From Monocercomonoides exilis PA203 (Eukaryota > Protista > Preaxostyla): 64,000 nucleotides of DNA. The DNA is taken from NCBI GenBank assembly GCA_001643675.2, contig LSRY02000043.1, positions 558,001 to 622,000 on the forward strand. Direction: 5' to 3'. Position 1 is the first letter of the stretch; each line of letters starts with the position of its first letter. The notes under the pieces are model-generated. The model ran no database searches. It was not told where the DNA came from and saw nothing but the letters and a program-made list of their open reading frames with translations. Shown one piece after another: positions 1,275-47,046 of the stretch. Made by a program: the position numbers and the translations under genes.

Positions 1275-2539
1275 TATATATATATATATTTTATCAAATG
1301 ACAAAACATATTTAACATATCAAATTGATGCAAAACTTCCAACAAATGCCTCCATCACAACATAACAACCAAGAGGCGGACCCAAGAAAACTTGTTGTTA
1401 CAATTGAAAATCAAGAAAGACTAATACACCTTTAATTTCCGATAGTGCACAATCAAATGAAAAAATTTATGAAGGGAATGAAGTTTTGGTTTGTTCAAAT
1501 TATCAACAGACTTTGCTTCCTCGAAAATCAAAGTTTATTTGAAATCAAAAGTTATTTCAAATAGTTGGGAAAAGAAATGAGAAGACAAAAAAAGATTTGA
1601 ACAGTCTGTGAACGAAAAATGACAATTCAAATATTTAAAGAACTGAAAATGGATGTGATCAAAATGAGCGGAGTGATGATGAATTTTGCATGAATGAAAG
1701 TGATATAAATTTTGATGAAGAACTGTTGTCAAATCCACAACACAATTGTTCTTTTTGGATGAGTGTTCAAAACAATAAAAGAATTAAAGCAATAAGTAAA
1801 AATCAGAAAAAGGAGAAATCATTAAAAATGAAAAGAAAATAATAGTTGGAGACCTGAGAAAACTTTCAGTTGATTTTTCAACGATTCAACATTTTGAAAT
1901 CAACACCTTAAAAATTTAAATGACATAAAAACACTTGAAGAGAGGGCATAGGTGTAAATTGAACCACTTTTTGTGAGCACTTTTGAAATTTTTTAACTAA
2001 ACGCCGTTAATATACATAATTAAACAAAGCGGTTCAAGGAGTGAAATTTCGAAATTCGATCATGAAAATTTTCAAAAAAATTTTTGATATTTTGCAACCC
2101 ATAATATTTTCATTGAGATCAAAAGAATTAAAAATTCAATTTGACAACTTCACAAAGTTTAAAGCAACTTTGCAATGAAAAGGCCAAAGAAGAACTAATT
2201 TTTTATTGTTTGTCTTGGAGTATTTTCACTTTCACAGTTTTTAATACAGTTATTATTAAATTATTCAATATTTTAATTATGCATTTGTACACACATAAAT
2301 GTGGACATCGTGAGTTTTGCAATTGCAAATACCTAAAATGATAAACATGATGTTTGCATATTAATTTTTTGTTTATAAGAATATCACTGTTTTTTCATTG
2401 CTTTTGTATTTGTTTCTATATTAATGTTAAATATTTGCAACATAAACTTGTTTATCATTGGAATTGTGGACATATGTTTAAGTATTTATCTATTTCATTA
2501 TCAGTTTTATTCGCAGGCGTTTCAGTGATGATTGAAGGA

Positions 2540-3476
2540 TCAAAATGAAAGAATGAAAGGAAATGATTAAAGTGAAATGGATGGAATGACCAAAGGCAGA
2601 TGCGTGCAAGGCGGGAAGGTGTGTAGCGGGGATAAACATAATGCAGCTGAGCTCTGCAATCAAAGTGTTTATCAGAAGGCATGAGAGTGAAATAGCAACG
2701 ATCGGTGTGTAGAAAAATGTTATAATAACAGAGAAAGGAAAGACAGTGAGTGTTATTGAGACGAATACTCTTTCTTCTTAATCAGCAACGCTGTTCACTG
2801 TGATGAGCTGGCAGTTGGAGTCGAAATATTATTGCTTGCTGAAATAACGGCAAATCCCAGGTCTGAAGAAGGTCATCCAATAAAATCATTCGTACTTGTG
2901 CTGGCACAGCCACAGCTGCCAATAACTGCCGTTGAGATGAAAAAACAAAGTTCTGCTGCAGCCCCTCGTCTCCACGCTGCACCCCTCCCAATCTCCGTTT
3001 CCATTGCTCCCATCCCCTTCTCCGCTGTTTTGGCAAACCCAGGCACCCGGATCATCGAAAAATTCTTCTGTGGCGAAACATCCCCAGCTACGCCCTGCTG
3101 AGAAATAAAAAACGAAAAAAAAGACATGCAGAAGGTGTAACACGATAACAGCTCCCTCGTGAGGCAAACAAAATGGCACACCTCCACCAGCCTGGCAGAT
3201 TAGATAACATTCTGAAAGGAAACGGTGACACCCACCGACACCAAGCTGCCCCACATGCCCGCTCACGCAACCCCACCACAACACATTTCCAGCACAGCGC
3301 GTAGAAAGAGGCATCACATACATGTTCCATGAGCATGAACAGCCCTCAGATAGATGAATCGCTGCCCCATTTCCCCGCCAGCTCAGAGACTCTGCAGCCG
3401 TATAACCTAAAGGTTCATATAACTCCCCACGAGGATGCTGTACTCTATATCTGCACCATACAGAATCGTTTTTCAA
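2540..3476 (-). pseudogene. GC-rich degenerate host-gene fragment (cargo of element A), Cys/Gly-rich surface-protein-like
   Basis: Abrupt rise in GC inside an AT-rich element; broken reading frames with GNGAAIHLSEGCSC-type segments (ORF 2886-3476). Confidence 0.45.
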
Positions 3477-3899
3477 AAAGCTCGTTGATTATTTTGGCTA
3501 ATTATTGATTTTCATTTCACATTCACAAACTTTTTATTAACGAATTCATTTCTTCAAAAATATTTCAAAAAAATGCTTTATGTTGAACTTAAAGTTGTCT
3601 ATAAGAGCTGATTTCCAAAAATTCAATTCATAATTTTCGCAAATGTGTTAATTTAGCTTGACTGTTTTCTAAATAAAATGCATACTTTGCTTCTCCTGTG
3701 TTTTTCTTGTATTCATCAACTCTTTTCAGAAACATGGATGAAATAAAAATAGCGCTGCAAAAAAAAGCAATTAAAAAAACAAAAATGAATTGATAAAGAT
3801 AATTTGAAAAAATCAACAGCAATGAAATAAAAATTCAAAAAAATTAAGATAAACGAGTTTGTAATTAAGAAATCAAAGATTTCGTAATCTGATCAAACA

Positions 3900-4770
3900 A
3901 ATGAAGTTTCTTTGAATATTTACTGCATACCACTTTCAATTGCCTCCTTGTCTTAACCTCTGAGTTTTCTCCTCCTCTTTATCCTTCTTCACTTCTCGTT
4001 CAGCAAAGCTCTATTGCTTCAAAATTCCCCTTGACCATCTCAATCTCCTTTCCTCGAATTTCTGAAAGCAAAATCTTACAGCCTCTATCGTCAATTGCGT
4101 CTGCTTTTTTTTCGCTGCTGTTTGATGTGGTTTGTGATCATCCATTATTACCTCCTCTTTCATTTCTTGCCTCGAAAAGGCTCATCCTTTCCTCAGCTTC
4201 ATCTTCATTCCCCGCAACCTGCCACATATCATCCTATCTCTTTTCACTTCTCCCATTTTTTACTCTGTTTTCTATTCTGTTTCTTCTGAAACATGCAGTT
4301 GCTTTCAATTCTATCATTAGAAACAGATACTTCAAAGACATTCCTCCAATTTTTACATAAAGATTTTTTCGCATGCAAACACTCCTCAAAACCTTTTTCT
4401 TTCCCGCAGCAACTTCTTCACTTCATGACTCTTCTTTTTCTTTCTCTTTACCCAACATTCCATAGATCCTAAACTCAATGATCAAGTTCCTGTGTGACTA
4501 ACAATCTTTGTCTAACAAGCTATTTCTTCATTCTCTCTTCTTTCAACATTTCTCGCTTCAAATTCACTGTGCATACAATCATCTCGTCAGTTGTTCTTCT
4601 TCTTTCCATGTTCCTCCAAGATGCATAGAAAATGACAAGGAAATAATCATTCCTTTTTCAGCATCTTTAACTTTAACTTTGTTTTTGTTAGATCCATCAA
4701 TTCACTTTATGTGTCATCTCTTTCGTCCAGAATCGCTTCCGTCTTTTGAAAAGCAGCGTTTAATTCAACT
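3900..4770 (-). pseudogene. Degenerate charged/coiled-coil host-gene fragment (second cargo of element A)
   Basis: Minus strand reads as E/K-rich codons (e.g. VELNAAFQKTEAILDERDDT*SELMDLTK) with many stops. Confidence 0.4.
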
Positions 4771-5285
4771 TCTATTTTATCAATTGTTTATTAAGGAAAT
4801 AAAAATAAGAATGATAAATATTTTATAACTATTTTTTAAAAATAAGAAACATTGATAAACAATAATCCAAACGTATTTCATTAATAGCTTTATTTGATTT
4901 TGCTTGATTAACAACAACTATTATTGAGTGTACGCTATTTATAAATCCAACTATTTAATCAGTTAAAAATTATGATATAAAGGAAATATAAGAGGAAAAT
5001 ACTCCAAGACAAACAATAAAAAATTAGTTCTTCTTTGGCCTTTTCATTGCAAAGTTGCTTTAAACTTTGTGAAGTTGTCAAATTGAATTTTTAATTCTTT
5101 TGATCTCAATGAAAATATTATGGGTTGCAAAATATCAAAAATTTTTTTGAAAATTTTCATGATCGAATTTCGAAATTTCACTCCTTGAACCGCTTTGTTT
5201 AATTATGTATATTAACGGCGTTTAGTTAAAAAATTTCAAAAGTGCTCACAAAAAGTGGTTCAATTTACACCTATGCCGAAGAGAG

Positions 5286-15011: not shown

Positions 15012-18000
15012 GGCATAGGTTCAAATGCGTTCCTTTTGCAATTTCCCTTTTTAAACGCTCAATTCATAACGAAAAATTAGATAATAATTATTAAAAAACT
15101 TTTTATGGACCGATTTTTCGAAAAAATTTTTCTTGTTGAAAAAAATAATTTTTGAAAAATGACCCATAAAAACATGAATTTCATTAAAAAAATATTCATA
15201 TTTCATAGATAATGGAATTTTCACACATCAAAAGTGTTTGCATGATTATATAGACTTATTTTATTTGTTAATTTTCATTAGAAAAAATATAAATCACGAA
15301 CAAAAAAATTAATTAAATATCTTTGATCTAACCCACAATAAATTTATTTATTATATGAAAAGTTAAATATGCTGTTTGAGCAGAAATCGAACTCAAAAGT
15401 TTGTGATTCGCTCACTTTTATATGTTAATATAAGTATATAATGATATGCGCACTAGTTTTATATTGAAAACTGATTTTATTATAAGTGACACAAACGCAT
15501 GCATTTTTACTTCCATGTTGTTAAGCTGAAAGATTAAAATTTCAATATTGGTTGCAATGGAACACAAAAGGTGTTATATGATTCATTCTGTCAACAAAAT
15601 ATTCATTTTTTTTTTTTCAAATATTTTCTATTCCTTTGATATGTCAATGAATTTTTATATTAGTCTCGATCAAAACATGCTTTTATGAATAAATCTTGCA
15701 AAAATTAACAATAATCACACAAAACAATTCACTATTGTATTATATAAACAATGAACTTTATAAAAGTTTGTTTTTTCTTTATAAAAAAGAATTGTTTGAA
15801 TGAGATTTATTTAACTCTAACAGTGAATTTGATGTTGTGATATGTAAAAGCGAGGAAGATCCATGCTTCACAATGTGGAAAGGGATGGAAAACATAAAAG
15901 GCGAAGAAGGAAATATAACAATTCAGATTGAAGGATCCACAGTTATTCAAGATTCATTCAACTAGTCCAATTATCAGATCAAAAAGTCACCTTTGATGGG
16001 AGAATAGAATTTGAAAGCAATATTGAATTTTGAAAAGGCAATTGGAAGTCAACTGGAATATTTCATGGAAAATGATATTCATCTTGAATTGTTCAACATC
16101 CAACTTCATCTGACATCGGGATTTGACAACTCAGCCAAAACAATTATTTCAAACAAAGGAGGAGAATTGGTGATACGCGAATGTTCATTCCATTCAGAAG
16201 CAGTAGTTAACAAAAGATTTGATTGTGTATTTGTGGATGTGATTGGAGGAAGTGTGGATGTGAAAGATGAAGGATCATTCACTCAAGAATGGCTTGTTGG
16301 ATGTTCGAGTTCATTGACAATGAGCCGACTTTCATTTGTTGTGAAAGGTCAGTTGAAAACGAGGAGAAATTCATTCATTCATTCAACATCAACAATCAAC
16401 ATGACGAACTGTTCAGTCTCATTTGAGAGTGGGGAATTGATCGATGGAATGATAGGATACAGCATCATTAAGATGACAGGAGGAAATCTGATTGCTGATG
16501 GATTTGTGATGAAAGAGTGTGTGCTGACGAAGTGTGTGAGAGAGAGAAGCACAGAACGCGGAGGGATGAAGATGTTGATGAAGAGAGGAGATACGGATGT
16601 GAAAGGGAGTGGGTGTTTGTTTGGGATGTGTGTGTGCTCAACAGGGAATGGAAGGGGAAAATGGATGATGATTGATGCACTTGATTTGAATGGTGAATGC
16701 TCCAACACGAAAATGCCAGCACTTGGGCTGAGATTGGAGAACATCCGATTCATGATGAATGATGCGTTTGTGGGGAAGGATGTGTTCATCAAGTGCCACT
16801 CGATTGGGAAACAGGTCAATAAAACGCTGTTTGAACTGAACTTCAGCCAGGAGGCACTGAAGGGGGAGAACTCGATGTGTGGGAGCGATGGAGAAGGGAA
16901 AGTTGATGTTGATCTGATGCTGCTGATTACGTTCAATTATTCTTCATAGGTGTATGTGTGTGTGAATGGGAGTGGCAACAGGCAGTGTGGAGCACATAAC
17001 GGTCCGTGTGAGAGCATTGGAAATGCTGTGCAACACATTCAAAAAAGTGTTGTGAATATGATTCTGATTGATGGGGAAGGGATGATGGGAGAGGGATGCG
17101 TGATTGGGGATGTGAGGATGGTGTCGATGCGGAGGGAGAAGGCGACAGTGCATTTTGAGGGGAAGATGGAGGAAAGAGGAGAGAAGAGGAGAGGAGCATG
17201 ATGGTGTTTGTGAATAAGAGTGTGGCGGAGAGGTGTTTGTTTGTGTTAGGAGAGGCATTTGAAGGGGTTGAAGAGAGTGTTTTGAAAGAGAAGGATGAGA
17301 GATTGGAGATTTCAGAATGCTTTTTCAACTCAACAGCAATGGATCTTGTGATGAAAAGCATGATTCTTCATGTCGAGAGTGGAGAGTTGAAGATGAGCGA
17401 AACGTTGTTCAGTGGAATTCATTCAGCTGTGCCACTTCTGTCATTCTGTGGAGAATCGGGTGCATCAATTGTTGAAACCCGAATGTTGAATATCGAGTGT
17501 GAGGGGGAAGTTGTGAGAGTTGGGGGAAAAGCGAAGACAGAGATGAAGGAAGTGAAGTTTGAGAATATCTAAGTAGCTTCTGAATGAAGCGTGTTGAAGA
17601 TGGATGGAGCTGAAAGGGGGTTGAGTGTGCTGAACTGCTCTTTTGCTCAATGCAAGTGCACAAACAAGAGAGGAAAGATGATGAGGATATGTGAATGTGT
17701 GGATGTGAGAATTGGATCGAGTACGTTTGATGGAGAGGAAGGAGGTGAAAGAGAAGGAAAGCATGGGAATGAGGATAATGGAAGAGGAGAAGAGATTTGC
17801 AGATTGAACGAATTTCTTTTTGATGTTGTGAAGAGTTCTGTGATGATGAAAGATTCTTCATTGTCGAATTCACAAGAAGGTGGAATAACAATGAGCATAG
17901 AAAGAATTAGAATTATAACAGAAAACATTCAACATTATTTATTGAGACTTCTTCATTTTGCAGAAACTGCAATAAACTTATTTTTTTGTTGCAAATTCTA

Positions 18001-19030
18001 GGTTGTTATTGTTTTTAATTGTTTTGATAGAGCTGCATGTATATAAATATCTTATTCATTTTTGCTTGATGTTTTATTAACGATTTTGAGGATAAAATGA
18101 TTTTAATATTTTTGAAATAGACACGATAAGAATTATTTCAAAAGCAGTTTCACAATTTGAAATATTTATTCGCTAAACTCGCTTTTCATTGTTTGAATAA
18201 AAAACATTTCTATTTACGTTTGTAACATGTAATTATCAACGAAAATATGAAAAGAATAAAAAAATAAACTTATAAAATAAATTCACAATTATTCACAATT
18301 CAAAATAATTTAGAGACTTTAAAAGATTAATAAAACCAAATAATTTCCGGTTTCATTGCATTTAAAAAAAGAAATTCTGAATTAAAAGTTAAAAAAATGA
18401 AAGAATATGTTTGTTTTTCAAAGATTCAAATAAACTTAACATTGTTTATTCGTTAGGAGGTTTTGCTAATATTTTTTTGAACCATTGCAATCCTCTTTGA
18501 AATTTAAATTTTGTAGCCGTAAAGCTTTCAAGCTAAAAATAACATGTTTATCTGTTTGAAATAAGGAGCTGTTTTCAATATAAAACTAGTGCGCATATCA
18601 TTATATACTTATATTAACATATAAAAGTGAGCGAATCACAAACTTTTGAGTTCGATTTCTGCTCAAACAGCATATTTAACTTTTCATATAATAAATAAAT
18701 TTATTGTGGGTTAGATCAAAGATATTTAATTAATTTTTTTGTTCGTGATTTATATTTTTTCTAATGAAAATTAACAAATAAAATAAGTCTATATAATCAT
18801 GCAAACACTTTTGATGTGTGAAAATTCCATTATCTATGAAATATGAATATTTTTTTAATGAAATTCATGTTTTTATGGGTCATTTTTCAAAAATTATTTT
18901 TTTCAACAAGAAAAATTTTTTCGAAAAATCGGTCCATAAAAAGTTTTTTAATAATTATTATCTAATTTTTCGTTATGAATTGAGCGTTTAAAAAGGGAAA
19001 TTGCAAAAGGAACGCGTTTGAACCTATGCC
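15012..19030. mobile_element. Non-autonomous long-TIR DNA transposon with host-gene cargo (Merlin-like ends), element B
   Basis: 460-bp inverted repeats 15012-15471 and 18571-19030 starting GGCATAGGTTCAAA(T/C)GCG, nearly identical; exact 8-bp direct repeat AAAAAGAT at 15004-15011 and 19031-19038; no transposase inside. Confidence 0.96.
15800..17900 (+). pseudogene. Captured, degenerate fragment of a large Cys/Gly-rich repetitive (beta-helix/surface-protein-like) host gene family
   Basis: Consecutive ORFs 16011-16949, 16950-17201, 17198-17572 and 17591-17900 of similar style (CSF, GGxxxI, CGAHNGPCESI motifs), separated by single stops or frameshifts; no proper start or end. Confidence 0.75.
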
Positions 19031-19038
19031 AAAAAGAT

Positions 19039-21270
19039 CGCGTGAATCTATTATCATTTCTTTCTTCTGTTTTGACAATGAAAGAACTGTCAAGCTTTGG
19101 TTTTGCAGTATCTCGGGGAGAATATTACTATTCCAGAGATAAGGCCAAAGTCGAAATGGATGGCTCAAGTCCAGAAGCAAACAATGGTTTCGATGAATCA
19201 GGTATTCTATTTATATTATTTCTTTCGTTGAATGATTCATTCACATTTTCATGTTATATGTTATAAGCTGAGAAAGATTACAGCCAAGTTGAAAACTGGC
19301 TTAGTCACCACAGTTTCTGTAGCTGCGAAAATGGAAGAAGAGTGAAAAAAAGTTGGAAAAATTGAAATATTTCGTTTATTTTTGAATGAATTTTTTGCTT
19401 TTTTGATGATATGAATATAATTTTTATGATTTTTGTTGCAAGTTCATATAGTTCCTCATCTTCATGTAAGGATCAATCATCAAAAAGTCATCAGGATTAC
19501 GAGAAAAAGAATCATGCATCTTCTTTTTCCACATGTCTCAATGATTTGACCGAAACGTTGAATCGAGCAATTTATAACGAAAATAAAAAAAGAAAAGATA
19601 ATAATGTTGATTGTGAACTGAAAAACAATAGAAAAAGAAACTTAAAAAAAAAAGGAAAATGATAATAACAAAAAGATAAAAGAAAATACAATAAATGCTC
19701 CATCGATTATTCATTCTTCGACTAGTGGAGAACATGAATATCAAGAGAGCGACAATTCACTTTATGAAAAGGATTGTGAAAGAGAAATTGAAAGAAAAGA
19801 TAAAGAAAAGGAAAAAAAAAATGATGATAAAAAAGAACTTGGAGATGATAAGAAAAAGAAAAAGAAAAATCGTGTATTTTTTCCAAATGAAAAGAGAATA
19901 ATTGTAAAAACTAAAAAGCAATTATTCAATGAAATGAAGAATGATATCGAAATTAAAATGGCTTATTCCACGTTTTGTAAAAAAACGAAGAATTTCAAAA
20001 AAGCAAAAAGGAGGACTGATTTGTGTGATGTGTGCGAGAGAGGAAATTTTTTGGAGAAGAAAGAAATAGAATTGAAAAAGAAAAACTTGTCTTTGAGTTT
20101 TGAAGAAATAGAAGAAAAGGAATTAATTGAAAAACATAAAAAAATGGCTCATTGCCTTAGAAATTTTTTTTTGTTATTTATCAAGAAATTGCATGAAAAA
20201 TAATGAAGTTTCAATAATTATGGACTTCAAAGAAAAATGGGCATTGCCCATAATGATGAATGAAACTGGTCGTAGCTTTTGCAACAAAAAGCAAATTATT
20301 CAATTGTGTTTTACTGTTTTTAAAGTTAATAAATTTAACATTTTGGAAAAACATTGTTTTACTTTTTTTTCAGAAATTTTATCTCATGATTTTTGTTTTG
20401 TTTGTGAATGCATAACTCAATTATTAAAATTTGATTTATTTGAAAATGTTAATTTTTTTCACTTTTATTGTGATAATGGCCCTCATATTAGGAACTCTAA
20501 TTACCTTCATTTTTTATTTTCAAATTCTTCTCCTTTTTTTTGTAATAAAAAATGTTCTTTATCTTTTTTTACTAAACATCATGGAAAAAATGATTGCGAC
20601 AGCGAATTTAATCATTTGACTAATTTATTAAATAATAATTTAAATAATACTGTTTTAAATACTTTAGAACATTTAATTTCTTTTTTTGCTCTTTAAATAA
20701 TTCCAATAAATTGTTAAATAAAAATTCCAATATTTTTCTCTCCAATTTTTCTTCTTTAAATAATGATTTTTTTCAATATTTAGTAATTAATAACGATTCG
20801 GCTGGAATGGAATTGGCAACTTTGCAAATGAACAAAGAGAGCGAAAGTATTTTTAATCCAAAACATTACTTTTAAAAGTGTGATGTTTTCTTTACAATTT
20901 TTTTTTAAATAATTTTTTTTATCATAATTTTTTTTTTAGACACGAAACATTATCAGAAACAAATTTGGACCAGCTGGTAATATTTGGTATGAAAAAATAT
21001 ATATTTTTTGAAAAAAAAGAAAGAGAATTATTTGCTTCTCCGATAAGCTCAGAAAAATTTGAATTTTAGAAAAAAATTAAATACTCGGAAAAATTAATAA
21101 AAAATAAAAAAATTAGAAAAACATTCGAAAGAAAAAATGAAAAAGACAAAGAAACAGAAGGAAATAATAAAGTTGGAAAAACAGTGAAAAAAATTTAAAA
21201 GAAAGATTATTTATGATAGATTCTGTATTTTTTAATAGATATGAGAATTTTTCTTCTTTATCAAAAAATG
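19039..21270 (+). pseudogene. Sola-like (DDD) transposase pseudogene
   Basis: Motif order AYSTF..K.FKKAKRRTDLCDVC...H (Zn-finger-like), IMDFKEK, SHD, FYCDNGPHIRN, FFTKHHGKNDCDSEF; frameshift between ORFs 19934-20203 and 20127-20696; further stops. Confidence 0.75.
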
Positions 21271-21281
21271 ATTTTTTATAT

Positions 21282-21549
21282 GGGGGAAAATACGGACTTT
21301 CAAGCTTTTTTTGCACTAGGCATTAAATATTTATTTCACTCATAACTTTATTTCGCTTTCTTTGATTTCAAAAAAATTTTGATTTTCATATCAGCAAACA
21401 AACCTAATTGATGCTTCAACAAAATGTTTTGTGTCTTTAAAAGTATTTCAAAAAATGGACCCATTTTTATTGCATTTTTAGATTTCAAAAAGTTAATGAA
21501 AAGTGCATAATTTTTCTATGAAAATGCCTGAAGTGAAATATTTTGCCCC
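21282..21549. mobile_element. 268-bp MITE (GGGG ends), TSD ATAT
   Basis: Ends GGGGGAAAATA and TATTTTGCCCC; ATAT on both flanks; diverged inverted copy at 22973-23239. Confidence 0.85.
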
Positions 21550-22013
21550 ATATAGCAAAACAGCAGATATGGAGCGACAAAAAGAAGTTATGAAAGGTAT
21601 GTCAGAAAAAGTTAATTTTCCAATTTTTGATAATTCAAATAATTCTCAAAATAACAATTCATTTATATTTCCTTTTTTAAATTCTTATTCTGATTTTTCT
21701 AATTCTTTTTTGAATGAAGAAAGTGGCGCAGGTATGACATTTAATTCAAATAATTCATTAAATATTGATATAAATAACAACAGCATGGAAATTGATTTTT
21801 AAAAATCTTAAAACAAAAAATACAAAGAAATTATTTTTTATTCTTGCTTATCTAATGATAACAAATTAAATTTGTTTGAGGACGTGACTGAATCCTTCCT
21901 GTTCTTGTTTTATTTTTAGTAAAAAAAAAGATTTGCAGGCTTTGGATCCAGATTCAGTCTCCCAGGAGAATAAAAAATAATTTCTCAATAATTCACAGAA
22001 AAATAATACATAT

Positions 22014-22266
22014 GGGTGATTATTTTTGAAATCACAACTTTTTTCGGAGTTTCGATTTTTTTATTTTCGTTTTGTCAATTTCTTGAAAATTATCATTCGA
22101 GTATTAAAAAAATTGCAATTGTTCAAAAAAGCACTCATTTGAGCTGCATTAATGTCATTTTTTTTGTAGACGGTGTAATCACTTTTAAATGTTCACTGAC
22201 AAAAATGCAAAACAAATTTTCAAGTCAAATTTTTCAACGAAAAAAATTGATTCAAAAAATGAACAC
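22014..22266. mobile_element. ~255-bp GGGTGATT-family MITE, right end decayed
   Basis: Left end GGGTGATTATTTTTGAAATC preceded by ATAT; degenerate right end GATTCAAAAAATGAACAC followed by AAAT at the expected distance. Confidence 0.6.
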
Positions 22267-22407
22267 AAATACATATTCATATTTGTATAAACAATCTTAG
22301 CGTATTCAGAAATCAATGTTTATATGAAAGGAAAACAAAATTTTAACAGAAATTATTTTGTTGAAATGGAAGATATAAAAATTATTTATTATGTGATTAA
22401 TATTTTG

Positions 22408-22475
<68 letters not shown>

Positions 22476-22972
22476 AGAAAAAAAAAAAGAATGTCTTTTT
22501 TTAAAATTCAAAATGTTTCCAAAACAGAAAATGAAACTTTTACCATTGAAAAATCATCTTTAAGAAAAAAATAATGAACCCACAATCTTTAATGACAAAG
22601 TTGCTGACAATGATTCTCTGAAAATTGTTCACAATTGAAAAGACATTTATGGAAATGCGAATGAGAAGATGTTGAAAACAATTGATACAACATCATTACC
22701 AGTTTCAACACCTCTTCTTTCTTCTCCTCGATATTTTTCTGAAACGCCAAGCCGTTTCAGTCGTGGATTGAGAACGTTTGGAGAAAATGTTTTCAATCCA
22801 TACATTCAACGTGGAATTTTTTCTTCAAGAGAAACGGACAAATCTCATCGGTGGTCGTTTGTTATGTATATTTTGTTCTGTCAAGCATATCATTTTGAAC
22901 CATTACCGCTTGACCCAAATGCAATGTATGGATTTGTGAAACTTCTTGAGATTGCGTTTGATTATTCATTTT

Positions 22973-23239
22973 GGGCAAAACATTTTGTTTCAGGCATTTT
23001 CATCGAAAAATTATTCACTTTTCATGAAATTTATGAAATCAAAAAACACAACAAAAATGGGTCCATTTATTGACATTCGTGAAATGTTGGAAAACTTTAT
23101 GATTCGATTTCAATGATGCCTGTTAACGGGAATGAAAATCAAATTTTTTCTGAAATCTGATAAAGTGAAATAAAGTTATTAGCGAAGTTATTTTTCAATG
23201 CATTATGCAAAAAATGCTTGAAAGTCCGTATTAATCCCC
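22973..23239. mobile_element. 267-bp MITE, inverted diverged copy of 21282-21549, inside the recombinase gene
   Basis: Reverse complement aligns along its length (AATACGGACTTTCAAGC, ATGGACCCATTTTT, ATGAAAATGCCTGAA); TTTT on both flanks. Confidence 0.8.
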
Positions 23240-23363
23240 TTTTTAAAAATTTTTCTTTTTTTACAAATTAACGAATGCATTCATGTGAAAAAACTGAAAT
23301 GGAAATATATTCTTATCAAGGCTTTTTCCTCCATTTCAATAAAATTTCTTTGAGTGAAAAGAT

Positions 23364-23603
23364 GTCAAAATTTTTTTGAAAAGTTCCTTTTGTTTAATTT
23401 TCAAATAAAGAAAAATTTTCATATACCGATCAAATTTCTGTTCCCACTCACGAAACTACTCAATAACAAAAATAATAACATTGCCAAGATCTTATATTCA
23501 TGACAGAGAAATTTGGTGAGTGTGAAAAGAAATTTGATCGAAATATAAATTTTTTTCTTTATTTGAAAATTAAACAAAAGGAACTTTTCAAAAAAATTTT
23601 GAC
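23364..23603. mobile_element. 240-bp fold-back MITE (GTC ends), TSD AGAT
   Basis: ~90-bp imperfect inverted arms beginning GTCAAAATTTTTTTGAAAAGTTCCTTTTGTTTAATTTTCAAATAAAG; AGAT on both flanks. Confidence 0.92.
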
Positions 23604-25008
23604 AGATATTTGTATATAAAAATATTTTTTCATGAATTTTGAACTATTATTGTGAATTTATTTTTTTCGAAAAATAAATAAATAAATACACTTGACTGTT
23701 CTTAAAGTTGGAAATCATAAGGTACTTCAGGATGTGAAGTCCAATCCTTTGAAGTCAGATGCTTGGATATGAAAAAACGCATGCGTCCAGACGTGTCTTC
23801 GATCATTAAGGAAGCTTATGGAGCGTTAAATACGGACTGTTCATCCTCTTGTTGCTAAGGGCTTCATTCTTTTTTGCGGAAAAGTATGTTTCAACTTATT
23901 GACTAGCATTATGCATGTCATCACTCCTTCAATAAAAAGAATAAATAACGAAAAAATAGGAAAGAAGATAAATAACAAAACAAACGCAGAAATAAATGAG
24001 GCAATAAGAAGTTTAAAGAACGATAAAGAAGTCAATAAAAAAGGAAAAGAAAGGGAACCTGCGCTGATCACTGACGTCGCTCGCATTGTTCATAAACTCC
24101 CCGATGATCTGGATTCTAAATATTTGGAAGCTTCACTTTATCTAGTGGGCGTTCAAACTGGAGCAAGGGCAATTACGTTATCAAGCCTAAAAATGTGTGA
24201 CATTAAAAGAGTTATACAATCGAAAGAAACAAACAAACTTCTTGTTACCTTTTGCTACAACCGGACAAAAGGTTCTTCGCATTGGGATCATCATGAACTA
24301 TTGAAGTATAGAAGGAGAGTTGCAATGAAAACAATGCAGCATTTTTTCTTTCGATGCACTTGAATTAAAGCGTTTGTGTATGTTTGAGTGAGTGGATGTT
24401 GAAGAAAGAGGAAGTTGAAAATGAAATTCCTGTTTTGTGAATCTTTACAGATGTAATGAGAGAGAGGTTCAAAATGAAGGCCGAAAATGCAGGATTCTAT
24501 CGGAATCTTTTCTGCTTCCACTCTATACGAAGTGGATTCAGATGCCCCGCCCTCAATAAGAGTGGAAAGAATGATGATTCGAAGAAGGCTGTGCTTGAGA
24601 AGACAGCAACGATGTTTGTTGTTACCTGATAAACTACAAACAAACGAATCAAGATAAAAATAAAAAAAATAAAAATTGTAGAATAAAAAATACAGGATAC
24701 AATTAAATGAAATTTAAACTATTATATTGGGTGTTGATTTTTGAAATGAAAAAAGTCTTTTAAAGTTTGATTTTTTATAAATGTTAAATACTTAACAATT
24801 TATCAATAAGCTAATGCAATAGATGAACTGAAAACAAAGAAATCAGGAATGGGATTGTTTTTTTTTTTTATTATTTATATTCATTAATTTGGAAACAACA
24901 AAAATTTTGTTATTCAAAAATTTTATCGAAATAAAATCTCTTTTTTTTTTAAAATTACATACTCGGTTTTTCATAGCGGTTCGATAATAAACAGTCACAA
25001 AAAAATAT

Positions 25009-27640: not shown

Positions 27641-27946
27641 AAAAAAGGATAAAAATCAGAATGGCCTTTAAGAATTGCTATTACACACATTGGTATTTCA
27701 TTCATTCAAAAAAATGTTCACATATGCGAGCGGAACAACTGACAAATGAAAATAAAGAAACAAATTAAGAATACAGAAAACAAAATAATTTATAATTTTT
27801 GAAATCATTTTTTTTATATATGAAACAAGAAAGAATTTTGTTCTTTATTCATGGATAATGTTCCCTTGGTTCAAATTTATTTAAAAAAATTCGCATAATT
27901 ATTATTCTTGTTAAAACAAACTATTCTTAACAAAAAAGAATTAATT

Positions 27947-28186
27947 GGGTGATTCTTTTTGAAAAGTCACAAACGTTTAATTTTCAAATATATCAAAAAT
28001 ATCATATCTTGATCAAATTTCGGTTCCCGCTCATGCAACTTCACAGGAATGTGTTAAATGGCATTGTCAAATTATGTCCTCCGCTTTGGTAAAGTTGCAT
28101 GAGCGGGAACCGAAATTTGATCAAGATATGATATTTTTGATATATTTGAAAATTAAACGTTTGTGACTTTTCAAAAAGAATCACCC
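27947..28186. mobile_element. 240-bp fold-back MITE with perfect 95-bp arms, TSD AATT
   Basis: 27947-28041 is the exact reverse complement of 28092-28186; 50-bp spacer; AATT on both flanks. Confidence 0.95.
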
Positions 28187-28940
28187 AATTATCTATTGCA
28201 AATGACAATAAGCATAATGGAAAATCGTTAAAATATTGTCGATTGAAGAGAAAATTTTTTGTTCACAAGAATTTAATCAAGTTTGATTCTTTTCAAAAAT
28301 GACTATAAAAAAATATGCAAGATTGAAAATAGTTATTCGAAAACATTAACAAACAAATTATGCAATCTTGTTGCACATTTGAAGTGAAAGTTATAACCTC
28401 TGTGAAAGTGTGAAAAAGAAATGAAATGAAATAATTTTTTATTAAGGTTTATTGATTGAAAATTGTGCTGAAGTCTTTTTCGAAAATTAAAAATTGTTGG
28501 TTAGTGTTTTTTTCCTTTTCAAAACAAATTTCAAAAAATTGTTTGTTCCTATCAAAAATAAAAAATAAAAAATAAAAAAACTGACGGGCACTGATTGACT
28601 TGGTCTCGCCATTTCCAAGGTGACGCAGATGTTTATTTTTTTCATTATTACAAGTATAGGCTTATGGGTGGAACAAAAGTCCAAAGGTGAAATATTTCGT
28701 CCCATTTGCTTTTCATTCGTTTCGATCAGGTTTCATTTTGGTAATTTTAATAATAATAATTATAATAATTATAATAATTATAATAATTATAAACTGAATC
28801 ACAAGTTAATAAATCTTGAAGGCCAGAAACGACATCTGATCCTCTTTTTGTCACAAAAAACTGATCACTCCTATTTGAAATAGAGCAATTATTACAAAAA
28901 ATACGCATTTCAACATTTTGTATAATGAAAGCAAACATAT

Positions 28941-29166
28941 TGGATAATTCTTTTTGAATAGTCGCAAAAGTTTAATTTTCAAATAAAAGAATAATTTCAT
29001 TTTTTCATCAATACTCTGTACCCACTCATGCGATAACACAATTATAGAAATAATATCATTATTTAGGTTTTTGTATCCATTAAAGTGAAGTTTCAAACGT
29101 GGGAACAGAAAATTGATGAAAACGTGATATTTTTTTATTTGAAAATCAAACAAAAGGAAATTTTCG

Positions 29167-29230
<64 letters not shown>

Positions 29231-30199: not shown

Positions 30200-31359
30200 A
30201 ATAATGGGAACGAAAAAATTACATATGAGCCAAATTGACGAAAAGGAAAAGCATACTATTGAAGTGTTGGATCAAAGAATACAGGAATCAGCTTTGCATT
30301 ACACAACTGACAAAATCAACTCCAAACTTTAAAGATCTTCGCAAGAATTAGAAGAAATCGTTGAAGAAAAAAAAAGGTCAAATTCCGACTGCAATAGAAT
30401 ATGAACCTATAAATATTCCAGATGATTGCTTGCAATTAGTTGAATGTGAAGTTTCAAAAACAAAAAGGAAGTGAGGACCTCAGAAAAAAGCTGTGGTACC
30501 AAAGATCAATACAAAAGAGAGAAAAAAGTACAACATGATTCCGAATAACATGAGGAACTTACAAAAAGCAGACAAGAAGGATGGAAAGACTCTCGCAGAA
30601 TTATCAGAAAAATTCAATGTTATTTTATTTACAGTTTCAAAAATTGTGCACGAAGAAGAGCCTCCAAAACAGCGAGGAGGAAAGGTTTGCGAAAAGATAA
30701 CAAAAGAAGCATCTTAAAAAAAAGGCAGAAATAATATATCAAAAACCAACGGTTGCAGCAAAAGAATAGGAAAACTCAGTTGCAGATGTTTGCACATCAC
30801 AGCTACTTGTTTCAGATGTTGCAAAGCACATCAATTCTAAAAAAAAAACAGAGAACATGAGTGTCAGGTTTTTTATGTGAAAAGATTGAGAAAATAAGAA
30901 AATGCAAAAGTGGACGAAAAAACTAAACAACTAGAAAAAGAATTCATCAAATGTTTTTTTAAAAAAAGAGAGAGGGGTGGAAAGATGATAATTTACATAG
31001 ATAAGACAGGATTTAATCCCTTGAACTGCAAACAGAAGGACGCTCACCAGCTGGTCAATGATGCATTCATTTTCGATAAAAAAAAAGTCGAAACAGTCCC
31101 TTCAATAACTGCAACTTGCGAATTCTTCTGTACAACGTGCTTGACAATTGTTGATAAAACAGTTAACGATCAAAGCCTTCGAGTGCTTTTGTTATCATTG
31201 ATAGAAGAGTCGGACACATTCGAAATACTTTTAAACGTTTTCGTTACAGATAATATTGGATAACGCAAAACAAAAAAGTCACAGATTTTTATTTTTTCGA
31301 ATAATGATGAAATTCAAACCATTGCATCAAACAGTTGTTAGTTGAATTCCTTTGAAAAC
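30200..31359 (+). pseudogene. IS630/Tc1-mariner-type transposase pseudogene
   Basis: HTH-like GKTLAELSEKFNV...TVSKIV followed by RGG; IIYIDKTGF (first D motif), FVTDN (second D), decayed ...LNSFENV (SPxLNPIE motif); multiple stops and frameshifts. Confidence 0.8.
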
Positions 31360-32670: not shown

Positions 32671-33246
32671 TTAGCGCTTTCCTTCCCATGTGCACGGGCA
32701 TCTTATATGCGGACATATAAGAGGCTCTTCCCTTTTGTCCCCTTGTCTGGCCAAGCGATGACATCTTTTTCGTGATTCATTCTCTTCGTGTGTTTCCACA
32801 GTCAGATTCAGAACGGTTGAATCACTATCCAGATGGCTCACTTCCAAGCCAGGCGGAATCTTCGCTCCCATGTTCATCCATCTCCATGCCAGATGGTGAA
32901 CTTCGACCTTCCAATTGCAGCCAACAACACATTGCACAGAAATCTGAGGATAAACACTTCGCTTATCCTTTCCAACTGTTTTGGTTCCAACAAGATTCAT
33001 TTTAATAAAGAATTCATTTCCGCGCTTAACCCTCGTGTTCATGCTTCTTGAGCCTGTAAGAAAGTTCGCCATTATAAAGTGTATTTCCACGAAATTGAAT
33101 TCGTTAGCTAGGGACTTATGTTCAGGCTTTTTCCAACTTTCATCCTTCTCATAATCTATTCGAGCATGCAAGGGATTGTAATGCTCCGAAAAGCCACCTT
33201 TATCACCACTTCTAGCGTTCTCATCGGCATCTTTCATGAACCTCAT
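32671..33246 (-). CDS. His-Cys box (His-Me finger, I-PpoI-like) endonuclease domain; C-terminal part of a longer disrupted gene
   Basis: YPQISV...VHHLAW...LEVSHL...L.VETHEENESRKRC...CPH..CPC matches the His-Cys box catalytic pattern (SHL, ExxxxNxxRxxC, CxH..C). Confidence 0.85.
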   Translation of the reverse strand: MRFMKDADENARSGDKGGFSEHYNPLHARIDYEKDESWKKPEHKSLANEFNFVEIHFIMANFLTGSRSMNTRVKRGNEFFIKMNLVGTKTVGKDKRSVYPQISVQCVVGCNWKVEVHHLAWRWMNMGAKIPPGLEVSHLDSDSTVLNLTVETHEENESRKRCHRLARQGDKREEPLICPHIRCPCTWEGKR

Positions 33247-34155
33247 CCACCATTCCCTCGTCTTCTTAGAAGTCGAGTTTCATTCCAAGCTACTTGGAGA
33301 TTTTATACTTGCCAGACTACTTGCCGATTCAGCTAAGAATCGGACAAGCTGGGATTCTTTAAATCCCAAAGTCACCGAAACAGGCAATTTCAAATCTCTT
33401 TTTGCTTGAACATATAGCCTGGTGGCTATGTTCATAAGACTGTCATTGGGAGAGTCTTCATTCGAAGCAACTTTCAAAATGAAAGGCAACTTCATTATCT
33501 CCGCTTCACAAAGGCGAAGATGAAAACGATCGTCCTTCAATTTTTGAATACACAAGGATTCCTCCTCGTATTCAAAGAATTGAAAACAGAAGTTGTTCTC
33601 CAAATCGTCACTTACAACGATTTTCCTTTCCTTTTTCAAAAAAGGAAGTGGCTTTTTGGTTTTTTCAACCAACGGGTCAATGTTAAAGGGTCCCCATCCG
33701 ACTAGAGTAGTTCATCCAAATAGGATAAACTTTTTTTTTTTTTGATGTTCTTCTGTATCTTCTTTTAAAGAAACAAGTCCCTGAACACATATTAAAAAAC
33801 AAATCTAACTGCAAACCTTCGTCATCACTGTCAAACATCAGAGACACCTCCATTGAGTCAGAACTGACATCAAGTTCGGTTGTCTCAGTGACATCGTCAT
33901 CCTATGGCAAAGTGTTTCGAAATTGTTGCAGTTGGGAGTTGCCAGTCGAACACTTTTCCTCCTCCTTTTTTTTATATTAACAGACTGATAAGCCTGAGAG
34001 TAAACCAGTTCAACACTCAGAGGCTCCTCCAGCGCAGCAGGCACCAGCAATCGCGGCCACTTCCTCACTTCATAGTCTTCGACAGGGGTTGGTGCCGTAA
34101 CCAATTTCCCTTCAAAATGAATGCAAAATACAAATCGACATGAGAAAAAAACCAA
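33247..34155 (-). pseudogene. Upstream part of the His-Cys box gene (in-frame TGA, probable 36-nt intron, frameshifts)
   Basis: ORF 33280-33672 is in frame with the nuclease ORF, separated by one TGA (...SPSSLE*NSTSKKTREWWMRF...); GT..AG T-rich segment at 33781-33816; further coding-like sequence 33838-34155. Confidence 0.55.
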
Positions 34156-44521: not shown

Positions 44522-45269
44522 CTGAGAAATAAATATTAAAATAAAAAATAGAATTTCGATTTAAATGTTCGTTTGACTGATTAAATTTCAAGTTAAGTTT
44601 GCAAACCGTTAAACATGAATTAAAATATTTACCTCCAAACTTGATCTAATGCATTTTTTGATTAATTTTTCATTACTGATCAAAGAATTAATAAAATCCT
44701 GAAAACACCATTGAAGTTTAACAATCAAAATTTCAATTCTATATTTAAAAAAAAAGAATCAAATCTTTATGTTGGAAAATGTTTTCTCATCATATGCAAA
44801 TTTGTTATTTGCACTTTTTTGTAAAAAAAAATCAAACTTATTTTTTCAAAATTTTCTGTAAAATGAAATATGAATATTCATAAATTAAAAAAACATTTTT
44901 GAAATAAATAGAAAACTTATTATTTTTTGAAAAATTATTCATTGTATCTATTGAGGATATCAAACGAACAAAACGTGAGTGAAAATCAGTATTAATGAAA
45001 ATGAAAATTTCAAATGAAATAATTAATTTAGATTAATTTGCATCAAATAGGGAAATAATATGTTAAAAAAAAAAAAAATAAACGAATTCCAAAAAGCATA
45101 AGCAGTTAATAAATCAAGAATAAATAAAGATTCGTTCATTGAAAATTGCACGAGCATTTCTTTCCCAGAATCTGAATTGAATTATTTTTTTTCGAAATAT
45201 TTATTTCAATTTATTATTCATGAAATATACATTTTAAATATTTATATTTCGAACAATAATATTTCTTAT

Positions 45270-45524: not shown

Positions 45525-46027
45525 ATATTCGTGAAATGATAATTCGATTTCGGAATAGACATTTCAATTTCGAAAAAGAATATATCAAATTCGAAACAAT
45601 TAAATTTTGACCATTTATGTGAATAGTTTGCTTTGTGAAATTCATGCACACTTTTTAATTTGTGATCAGACTGCTTTTTTTTTCAGTTTTTGAAATTGAT
45701 GATTTTTCAAAAAAGAAACAAGCGATTTAGAATTTTTTGCATATTTTATTTTTTGATTATCAAAAATGAAAAATATCAACTATTTAATGAATTGAAGCAT
45801 TTTCTGCATTTTGTAGAAATATTTTGTGTTTTTTGAAACTGAAAACTTTTTATATGGGATATTATCTTTGATTCCATATTTTTGTAATCAAAAATTTTCG
45901 TTCGAAATTATGTCTTTAATAACAACAAAAGAACACTGAAAAGTGAAAATACTAATAAAAAATATCTCCATCTTTGCTACAGCTTAATATTTGCATTTGA
46001 AATATTTTTTGATAAAATCTATCATAT

Positions 46028-46265
46028 GTCAAAATCTTTTTGAAAAGTTCCATTTGTTTAATTTACAAAAAATAAAAAATTTCATATTTCAATCAAATTT
46101 ATGTTTTCACTCACCAAATTTTGCTGTCATTGAAACAAATCCTTGTCAAAGTTATTTTATTCGTTTGGGTGTGATTTTGTGAGTGAAAACAGAAATTAGA
46201 TAGAAATATGAAATTTTTTATTTTTTGAAAATTAAACAAATGGAACTTTTCAAAAAAATTTAGAC
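46028..46265. mobile_element. 238-bp fold-back MITE (GTC ends), TSD ATAT
   Basis: Inverted arms homologous to 23364-23603; ATAT on both flanks. Confidence 0.88.
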
Positions 46266-46340
46266 ATATAAAAATCCAAAATCTCTATTCAATGATAAAC
46301 AACTCTTGAAAAATCAACACTCCGAAAAAAGATACGATTT

Positions 46341-46580
46341 GTCTAAATTTTTTTGTAAAGTTCCTTTTGTTTAATTTTCAAATAAAATGAAAATTTCATA
46401 TTTCAATCAATTTTCTGTTCACAATTATGAAATTTCACGAAATTAGAAATAAAAACAATGTCTTGATTTTGCTTTTATATCAGCAAAATTTGGTGAGCGT
46501 GAACAGAAATTAGATCAAAATATGAAGTTTTCATTTTCTTTGAAAATTAAACAAAAGGAACTTTTCAAAAAAATTTTGAC
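46341..46580. mobile_element. 240-bp fold-back MITE (GTC ends), TSD ATTT
   Basis: Inverted arms homologous to 23364-23603; ATTT on both flanks. Confidence 0.9.
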
Positions 46581-47046
46581 ATTTCAAAAATATTCACCCA
46601 TTTATTTTATTCAGTAGTAATTATTTTTCAGTATTCAAATTTCAGTTAAACATTTTTTGTTGAGTGAAGAAAATTCTTTTCATTCAACAACAGAATCATT
46701 TCCATGAAATATTTATGACAATCTTCAAAAAATCAATATATTTTTAAAAACTCAATAATTATTCAAGAATGATAGTTTGTTGCTAGGTGAATTTCAACAT
46801 ATTATTCACTGATATCCATCAACATGAAATCGAAAAAATACAGTCAAGAATTATTTTCAAAATAGAAATATTCTTTTTCGAATTCAAATTATTAATTTAC
46901 GAAATTGAATTATTTTTGGTGTATATTTCATAAATAATAAATTGAAATGAATGTTTTGGAAAAAAAAAAAATCAATTCAGATTCTGGGAAAGAAATGCTC
47001 GTGCTGTTTTCAATGAACGAAACTTCACTTATCCTCTATTATTTCA

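Follow-up and report, generated by a model that had tools for sequence, protein, structure and literature searches.

A probable non-autonomous Merlin transposon with identical long arms and a decayed gene-family fragment in Monocercomonoides exilis

We analyzed a 64,000-nucleotide stretch of the Monocercomonoides exilis PA203 genome (GCA_001643675.2, contig LSRY02000043.1, positions 558,001 to 622,000 of the forward strand; hereafter the window), focusing on a 3,333-bp segment at 1945-5277 that we call element A. The explanation we favor, and consider likely, is that A is a non-autonomous transposon of the Merlin superfamily that is mobilized in trans and carries a Pack-type cargo, a piece of a host gene family captured from the genome. 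A is a real DNA element. Its arms, 1945-2227 and 4995-5277, were complementary at 283 of 283 bases, and an exact copy of GAAGAGAG was found at both ends, 8 bp being the sole matching length among the 2 to 12 bp tested. The chance of such a duplication, given the local base composition, was 1.9e-5. An earlier examination of the letters alone (the sequence-only reading) had described terminal inverted repeats (TIRs) of 283 bp and an exact 8-bp target-site duplication (TSD). Both were borne out, although 283 bp is the extent of the perfect repeat only: with gaps, it continues to ~329 bp, the inner ~45 bp being ~66% alike. In a search of the whole window for paired GG[CT]A...T[GA]CC ends flanked by an exactly duplicated 8-mer, only A and a second element, B, were recovered; the end-pair pattern of elements of this type is GGCATAGG...CCTATGCC, bounded by 8-bp duplications. 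All frames across the insertion point of A contained 11-23 stops in ~300 codons, which rules out an intact gene as the target site. The target was decayed or non-coding. The features of both elements are listed in Table 1.

Table 1. Positions of the features of elements A and B in the window
Feature	Position	Strand	Remarks
Left TSD, GAAGAGAG	1937..1944	+	
Left arm of A, 283 bp	1945..2227	+	Starts with GGCATAGGT
Left arm, degenerate continuation inward	2228..2273	+	~66% alike to 4949-4994
Cargo 1, frameshifted and stop-interrupted internal part of a host family that has expanded	2540..3105 (start approximate)	+	Homologue MONOS_14585
High-copy zone	2722..3453		Many collinear relatives at other genomic sites, ~85-88%
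Stop-free frame of 200 codons across the high-copy zone	2886..3488	-	No Pfam family
Cargo 2, likely a decayed coding remnant, low copy	3871..4780	-	Strand composition, stop depletion
Right arm, degenerate continuation inward	4949..4994	-	
Right arm of A, 283 bp	4995..5277	-	Likewise begins with GGCATAGGT
Right TSD, GAAGAGAG	5278..5285	+	
Element B	15012..19030		A-type terminus, TSD AAAAAGAT

The structure of A was corroborated by contigs from four sequencing runs, all of one sample. The four-run comparisons given here are among the 32 of 1,487 pieces listed, and the figures for sister copies and ends in run X2 come from listings of 8 out of 46 pieces and 6 out of 15 loose ends; summed contig depth is not copy number, and depth ratios are rough. 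Both junctions of A were crossed by contigs with 0 differences at flank depth, and single-copy contigs in the four runs reached 27-30 bases into each arm, again with 0 differences. In run X2, contigs matching the arm exactly had a depth of 202-214 as opposed to 97 for the flank, and this roughly twofold ratio fits two identical arms. The exact junction and arm contigs rule out an assembly artefact as the source of arm identity.

The same contigs revealed relatives of A. Run X2 contained two other arm contigs, with 5/93 and 10/133 differences, and two other left-interior contigs, with 8/89 and 10/89 differences, each at single-copy depth. Longer interior contigs, among the pieces listed, differed from A by 2-3%. 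Altogether, the interior of A is present in about two sister copies, at 90-98% identity. We take them to be paralogues, since the flanks were without variants and each sister was found at about flank depth. The genomic context of these relatives, as of those at 85-88% identity, is not visible in the contigs. One single-copy relative joined 3271 to 3806 in three of the four runs, and one contig of run X3 joined 4838 to an arm position via 35 other bases; we read both joints as probable structurally altered sisters. The outer 50 bp of A reached 12-20 times flank depth in run X2, where two contigs brought other flanks to position 1945. Thus, element ends outnumber copies of the interior. Among the five joints listed, none corresponded to an empty site, which is uninformative because contigs drop rare variants. 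The A-type terminus pattern had 0 matches in JGI metagenome contigs.

The interior of A contained no recognizable transposase. No Pfam family, including DDE_Tnp_IS1595, was found in any of its six frames at E values up to 1, which rules out a decayed transposase as the source of the interior. Across A and B together, none of the 12 interior frames matched a transposase family, the six of B giving a single irrelevant Pfam match (E 0.13). The sequence-only reading had named one transposase-derived interior, identical in all copies, as the outcome contrary to its capture claim; we found ends more numerous than interiors and no transposase family.

A is nevertheless very probably a Merlin element, though not an autonomous one, as the DDE_Tnp_IS1595 transposase is missing between its TIRs. 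Merlin elements are characterized by GG ends, a TSD of 8 or 9 bp and TIRs of 24-462 bp (PMC8101967), and A has terminal 5'-GG, an 8-bp TSD and TIRs of 283 (~329) bp. Monocercomonoides has more than 100 Merlin copies in at least seven families, all with 8-bp TSDs (PMC8101967). In the family alignments of that study, F1, F2, F4 and F6 start with GGCAT, F5 with GGCAA, and F3 and F7 mostly with GGTA. A closer, putative link came from an excerpt of LSRY01001922.1, a contig with a Merlin hit. Compared by eye, it agreed with window positions 5151-5217 at 59 of 67 bases and with 5252-5265 at 13 of 14 bases, the 34-base spacing being kept. An open reading frame (ORF) starts ~240 bases inside this A-like end, and 11 of 22 residues of its hand-made translation are those of the N-terminal Cys-x2-Cys region of the Merlin in LSRY01000732. 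Two further excerpts carried related ends: LSRY01001541.1 an A-like sub-family end with the GGCATAGGT terminus, and LSRY01001580.1 the first 13 bases of A followed by B-like bases. A close relative of the B arm was found in an excerpt of LSRY01000583.1 from Monocercomonoides sp. PA203; since this arm is 5 kb away from an unrelated Merlin, presence among Merlin-hit contigs proves little.

Long arms combined with gene fragments are typical of Pack-MULEs, and A might instead belong to these or to another superfamily with long TIRs (Mutator, P/Galileo or hAT). A shares the long TIRs of Mutator elements and Pack-MULEs (283-329 bp in A) but not their 9-10-bp TSD. hAT TIRs are short and begin with (C/T)A, whereas those of A are long and begin with GG. 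The 8-bp TSD of A does fit hAT as well (PMC8903248), and Mutator-like elements are present in Trichomonas (PMC2725143). However, A and B each have a TSD of exactly 8 bp, as opposed to 9-10 bp for the MULE case of PMC8277862; the GGCAT start is that of local Merlin families, and a related arm apparently adjoins the start of a Merlin-like ORF. We therefore regard a placement outside Merlin as very unlikely.

Homology to a host protein was found for cargo 1. It matched the M. exilis protein MONOS_14585 at E 3.3e-16, the sole match among 297 candidates, and is homologous to residues ~245-415 of that protein. In a tblastn comparison, residues 266-415 aligned in two frames with pieces covering 2605-3105; cargo 1 is thus internal and frameshifted, and it lacks the first ~240 residues. 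In the Atlas, MONOS_14585 was nearest to a 74-member Preaxostyla cluster (score 0.96), followed by DUF1565, Chlam_PMP and Beta_helix clusters (score 0.94). As a lead, this family may be predicted to form a beta-helix of the DUF1565/Pmp-like kind. Tyrosine kinases have been named as the largest family (PMC6759080).

Zone 2722-3453 had a summed contig depth tens of times that of the flank in all four runs. The minus-strand frame at 2886-3488, opposite to cargo 1, had 0 stops at 3111-3470 (5 of 300 shuffles were as low) and is possibly a third fragment or an antisense shadow. A codon-model scan of cargo 1, with 100 shuffles per window, is a weak test and gave no clear signal (z 1.0-1.5). A working protein is unlikely to be encoded by the cargo of A, and as the cargo has decayed, this copy of A is probably without function. 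At 2580-2642, a few positions (e.g., 2642) were read otherwise in all listed contigs of the four runs; the cause is a local misassembly of the window or else the collapse of sister copies.

Cargo 2 is likely a decayed gene remnant, to judge from its composition. The purine fraction of its minus strand is 0.67, and four long ORFs of the window have 0.55-0.67. Between 3871 and 4422, limits set after inspection, there were four stops in 184 codons as opposed to ~12 expected, a count as low as this being obtained in 2 of 300 shuffles. Cargo 1 and cargo 2 had no real similarity (best blastn E 0.11), and tblastx comparisons of the two, and of A with B, returned low-complexity scraps only. Of the two decayed coding fragments that the sequence-only reading had placed in A, the first is thus backed by a homologue; the second is backed by composition and stop depletion and is without one. 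Since the sister copies share both, cargo 1 and cargo 2 may have been picked up once, as a block that was already decayed.

The interior could also be a Merlin deletion derivative filled with nested decayed repeats rather than functionally captured host genes. The cargo 1 zone has tens of relatives at 85-88% identity, the sole protein match is an uncharacterized and apparently broken model, and cargo 2 has no homologue. About 35% of the M. exilis genome is made up of unclassified repeats, but the same study suggests expanded protein families as their source (PMC8767320). Furthermore, the homologue of cargo 1 resembles beta-helix proteins and no transposon protein, and A yielded no TIR/TSD pairs nested inside it. 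We consider nested repeats quite unlikely.

The TSD of element B is exactly 8 bp, matches of 9 to 12 bp failing in both elements. The termini of A and B share nine identical bases, followed by two mismatches and then AAAT in the left arm of B and AAAC in its right arm; beyond base 15, there was a weak, AT-rich local match scoring 38, the maximum of 500 crude shuffles being 36. The TIR of A thus shares just its terminus with B, as the sequence-only reading had said. The view that A and B are different long-arm families served by related transposases is likewise supported by the terminus type and the 8-bp TSDs, and the two were likely moved by related Merlin transposases. Inside B lies the decayed, plus-strand fragment of a beta-helix-like gene, with TM values of 0.5-0.66 to beta-helix clusters in the Atlas, all below the naming bar. 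MONOS_14585 matched it weakly (E 0.003), at the same cysteine motif. Cargo 1 of A and the cargo of B are probably distant members of one predicted beta-helix superfamily, and this kinship looks like evidence against the earlier wording that the cargos were captured independently.

The arms of both elements are layered: 283/283 identical bases and then ~66% in A, 459/460 and then ~60-78% in B. The sister arms of A differ by 5-8%, even though its own two arms are identical. Zero mismatches over the arms of A have a probability of 5e-7 at 5% drift and 0.003 at 2%. Cut-and-paste transposition does not recopy TIRs. Since the arms of A and B are near-identical within each element while sister arms differ by 5-8%, we infer that one arm of A may have been replaced by a copy of the other once the sisters had diverged. 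Growth and conversion of TIRs have been described for Galileo (PMC3573991), and a literature search on TIR homogenization returned nothing pertinent.

Identical arms would also be expected from a recent duplication of one end, as in a composite (macro-) transposon in which two copies of one short Merlin end or MITE (a miniature transposable element with inverted repeats), opposite in orientation, surround a decayed stretch and move together with it as one passive block. The interior of A is like its flanks, with AT-rich DNA alternating with decayed coding-like stretches; the two pieces occur in the same order in the sisters, and the single-copy relative joining 3271 and 3806 recurs in three of the four runs. 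However, no TSD was found at the inner arm borders, the outer 8-bp pair being the only non-palindromic one. The older degenerate extension (2228-2273 / 4949-4994) indicates that the arms have long existed as a pair, and B has the same layered arms. On balance, a composite origin is unlikely.

The history that we propose for A as a Pack-type Merlin would run as follows. The source of its arms would be an autonomous Merlin family, namely the end in front of the transposase gene. The transposase region would have been replaced by ~2.7 kb of genomic DNA, possibly in one event and probably through gap repair with template switching after excision. Gap repair is the capture model favored in PMC8277862, and gene capture is to be expected of TIR transposons whatever their superfamily (PMC8277862, PMC8903248). 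The loaded unit would then have been copied to about three places and decayed, its two arms having been made identical later by conversion or by copying of one end onto the other. A Merlin transposase encoded elsewhere in the genome would have cut and pasted A in trans.

Several points weigh against this interpretation. With respect to the superfamily, an exact A arm is present in none of the seven curated Merlin families F1-F7, as given in the published alignments, and their TIRs mostly measure just 23-29 bp (PMC8101967). The link between the A arm and a Merlin ORF comes from a by-eye comparison of a 400-base excerpt that ends before the DDE domain, and the header of LSRY01001922.1 (1_5730) points to a tblastn match that ends near base 730, outside the arm, so that another match was apparently the reason for the inclusion of this record. 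With respect to the cargo, cargo 1 has one match among 297 candidates, and the MONOS_14585 model seems to be frameshifted in its last 100 residues. MONOS_14585 itself had 0 matches to Pfam and to PDB sequences, which is why its beta-helix fold is treated here as a lead. A search of the 2500-2890 frame against proteins of 568-2000 amino acids returned 0 homologues among 281, and the much-repeated family of cargo 1 may itself be mobile DNA. The codon signal of cargo 2 was weak (best z 2.1; 5 of 100 shuffles), and no homologue of it was found among 224 candidates of 220-700 amino acids or among 1.84 billion representatives. Finally, contig depths are not copy numbers, the four runs represent one sample, and neither a parent free of TIRs, nor the TSDs of sisters, nor a complete autonomous partner was seen in the read contigs.

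The window contained several other repeats and ORFs. A 360-bp MITE-like element at 916-1275, with ~35-bp TIRs starting AGGGTGGTCC and (TA)n on both sides, is presumably Tc1/mariner-like. Two overlapping plus-strand ORFs at 19646-20696 had no Pfam match and carry the transposase-like motifs CDxC, MDFKEK, CDNGPH and HGKNDCD, which we take to be of the DDE/DDD type. An older inverted pair at 21263-23258 (291 bp at 76%) had unrelated ends and no TSD that we could find. Palindromic, MITE-like repeats of ~240 bp, 68-81% alike, occupy 23362-23607, 27942-28191, 28939-29172, 46024-46269 and 46340-46581, and two of them sit between an 84% inverted pair (45117-45264 / 46887-47035). A plus-strand ORF at 23830-24363 gave only irrelevant Pfam matches below the cut-off; we assume that one of its motifs is reminiscent of tyrosine recombinases. 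Another, at 30898-31263, had no Pfam match and a YIDKTGF motif that we likewise take to recall Tc1/IS630 transposases. The 202-residue minus-strand ORF at 32671-33279 matched HNH_3 (E 0.016) and zf-His_Me_endon (E 0.033), both weakly and below the cut-off.

If these readings hold, A points to a candidate means by which an unexplained gene superfamily, and the unclassified repeats of M. exilis, could have expanded. One may speculate, with considerable doubt, that long-armed Merlin derivatives act throughout the genome as carriers, copying and shuffling fragments of a large oxymonad beta-helix superfamily, likely of surface or receptor proteins, that they account for part of the 35% of repeats, and that their arms are kept identical by within-element conversion. 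Such conversion would leave each arm with a perfect outer part and an older, decayed inner part. With layered arms, the identity of the TIRs may overstate the youth of an element.

The nearest known counterparts of A are the Merlin families F1-F7 of Monocercomonoides sp. PA203, which are related to IS1016/IS1595 and share with it GG(C/T)A-type ends and the 8-bp TSD (PMC8101967). They are ~1.5 kb long, encode a transposase and have mostly imperfect TIRs of 23-29 bp (PMC8101967), whereas A is 3.3 kb long, has no transposase and combines perfect 283-bp arms of another sub-family with foreign DNA inside. In a word check, the main text of PMC8101967 mentioned no non-autonomous copies, MITEs or capture. 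In the length of its arms, A resembles the Galileo elements with two TIRs of Drosophila mojavensis, whose non-autonomous copies have the longest TIRs (PMC3573991). Those TIRs lengthen when sequence next to one end is recruited into them, and recombination and conversion have been invoked. Galileo, however, belongs to the P-element superfamily, with 7-bp TSDs and element-derived interiors (PMC3573991).

In its cargo, A resembles the Pack-TIR elements of animals (PMC8277862) and the Pack-TYPE elements of plants, including Pack-MULE and Pack-CACTA (PMC8903248), which are likewise non-autonomous, bounded by TIRs and a TSD, loaded with gene fragments and present in few copies. A is non-autonomous, has TIRs and a TSD and contains a fragment of a non-transposase gene, cargo 1. 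The Pack-TIR study further requires a TIR-free parental copy of at least 90% identity (PMC8277862), and the read contigs revealed no such parent for A. Copies of a loaded unit that has transposed repeatedly would also have distinct TSDs, and the contigs showed about two sister arms and interiors. Pack-TIR and Pack-TYPE elements are known for MULE, CACTA, hAT, Mariner and PIF, the word Merlin occurring 0 times in the texts of PMC8277862 and PMC8903248 that we checked. Literature searches covering few subscription papers, together with word checks in the accessible text of PMC8101967 and PMC6431247, revealed no Merlin-based gene capture. In the myxozoan Sphaerospora molnari, the cargo of Pack-MULEs has been proposed to coincide with diversified parasite gene families (bioRxiv 10.64898/2026.02.11.705288); those are Mutator elements of an animal, and only two elements were examined here. 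The host of A is a metamonad protist, as opposed to the animals and plants of Pack-TIR and Pack-TYPE elements. If our interpretation is true, the known range of Pack-type capture would grow by one superfamily, Merlin, and would come to include a metamonad.

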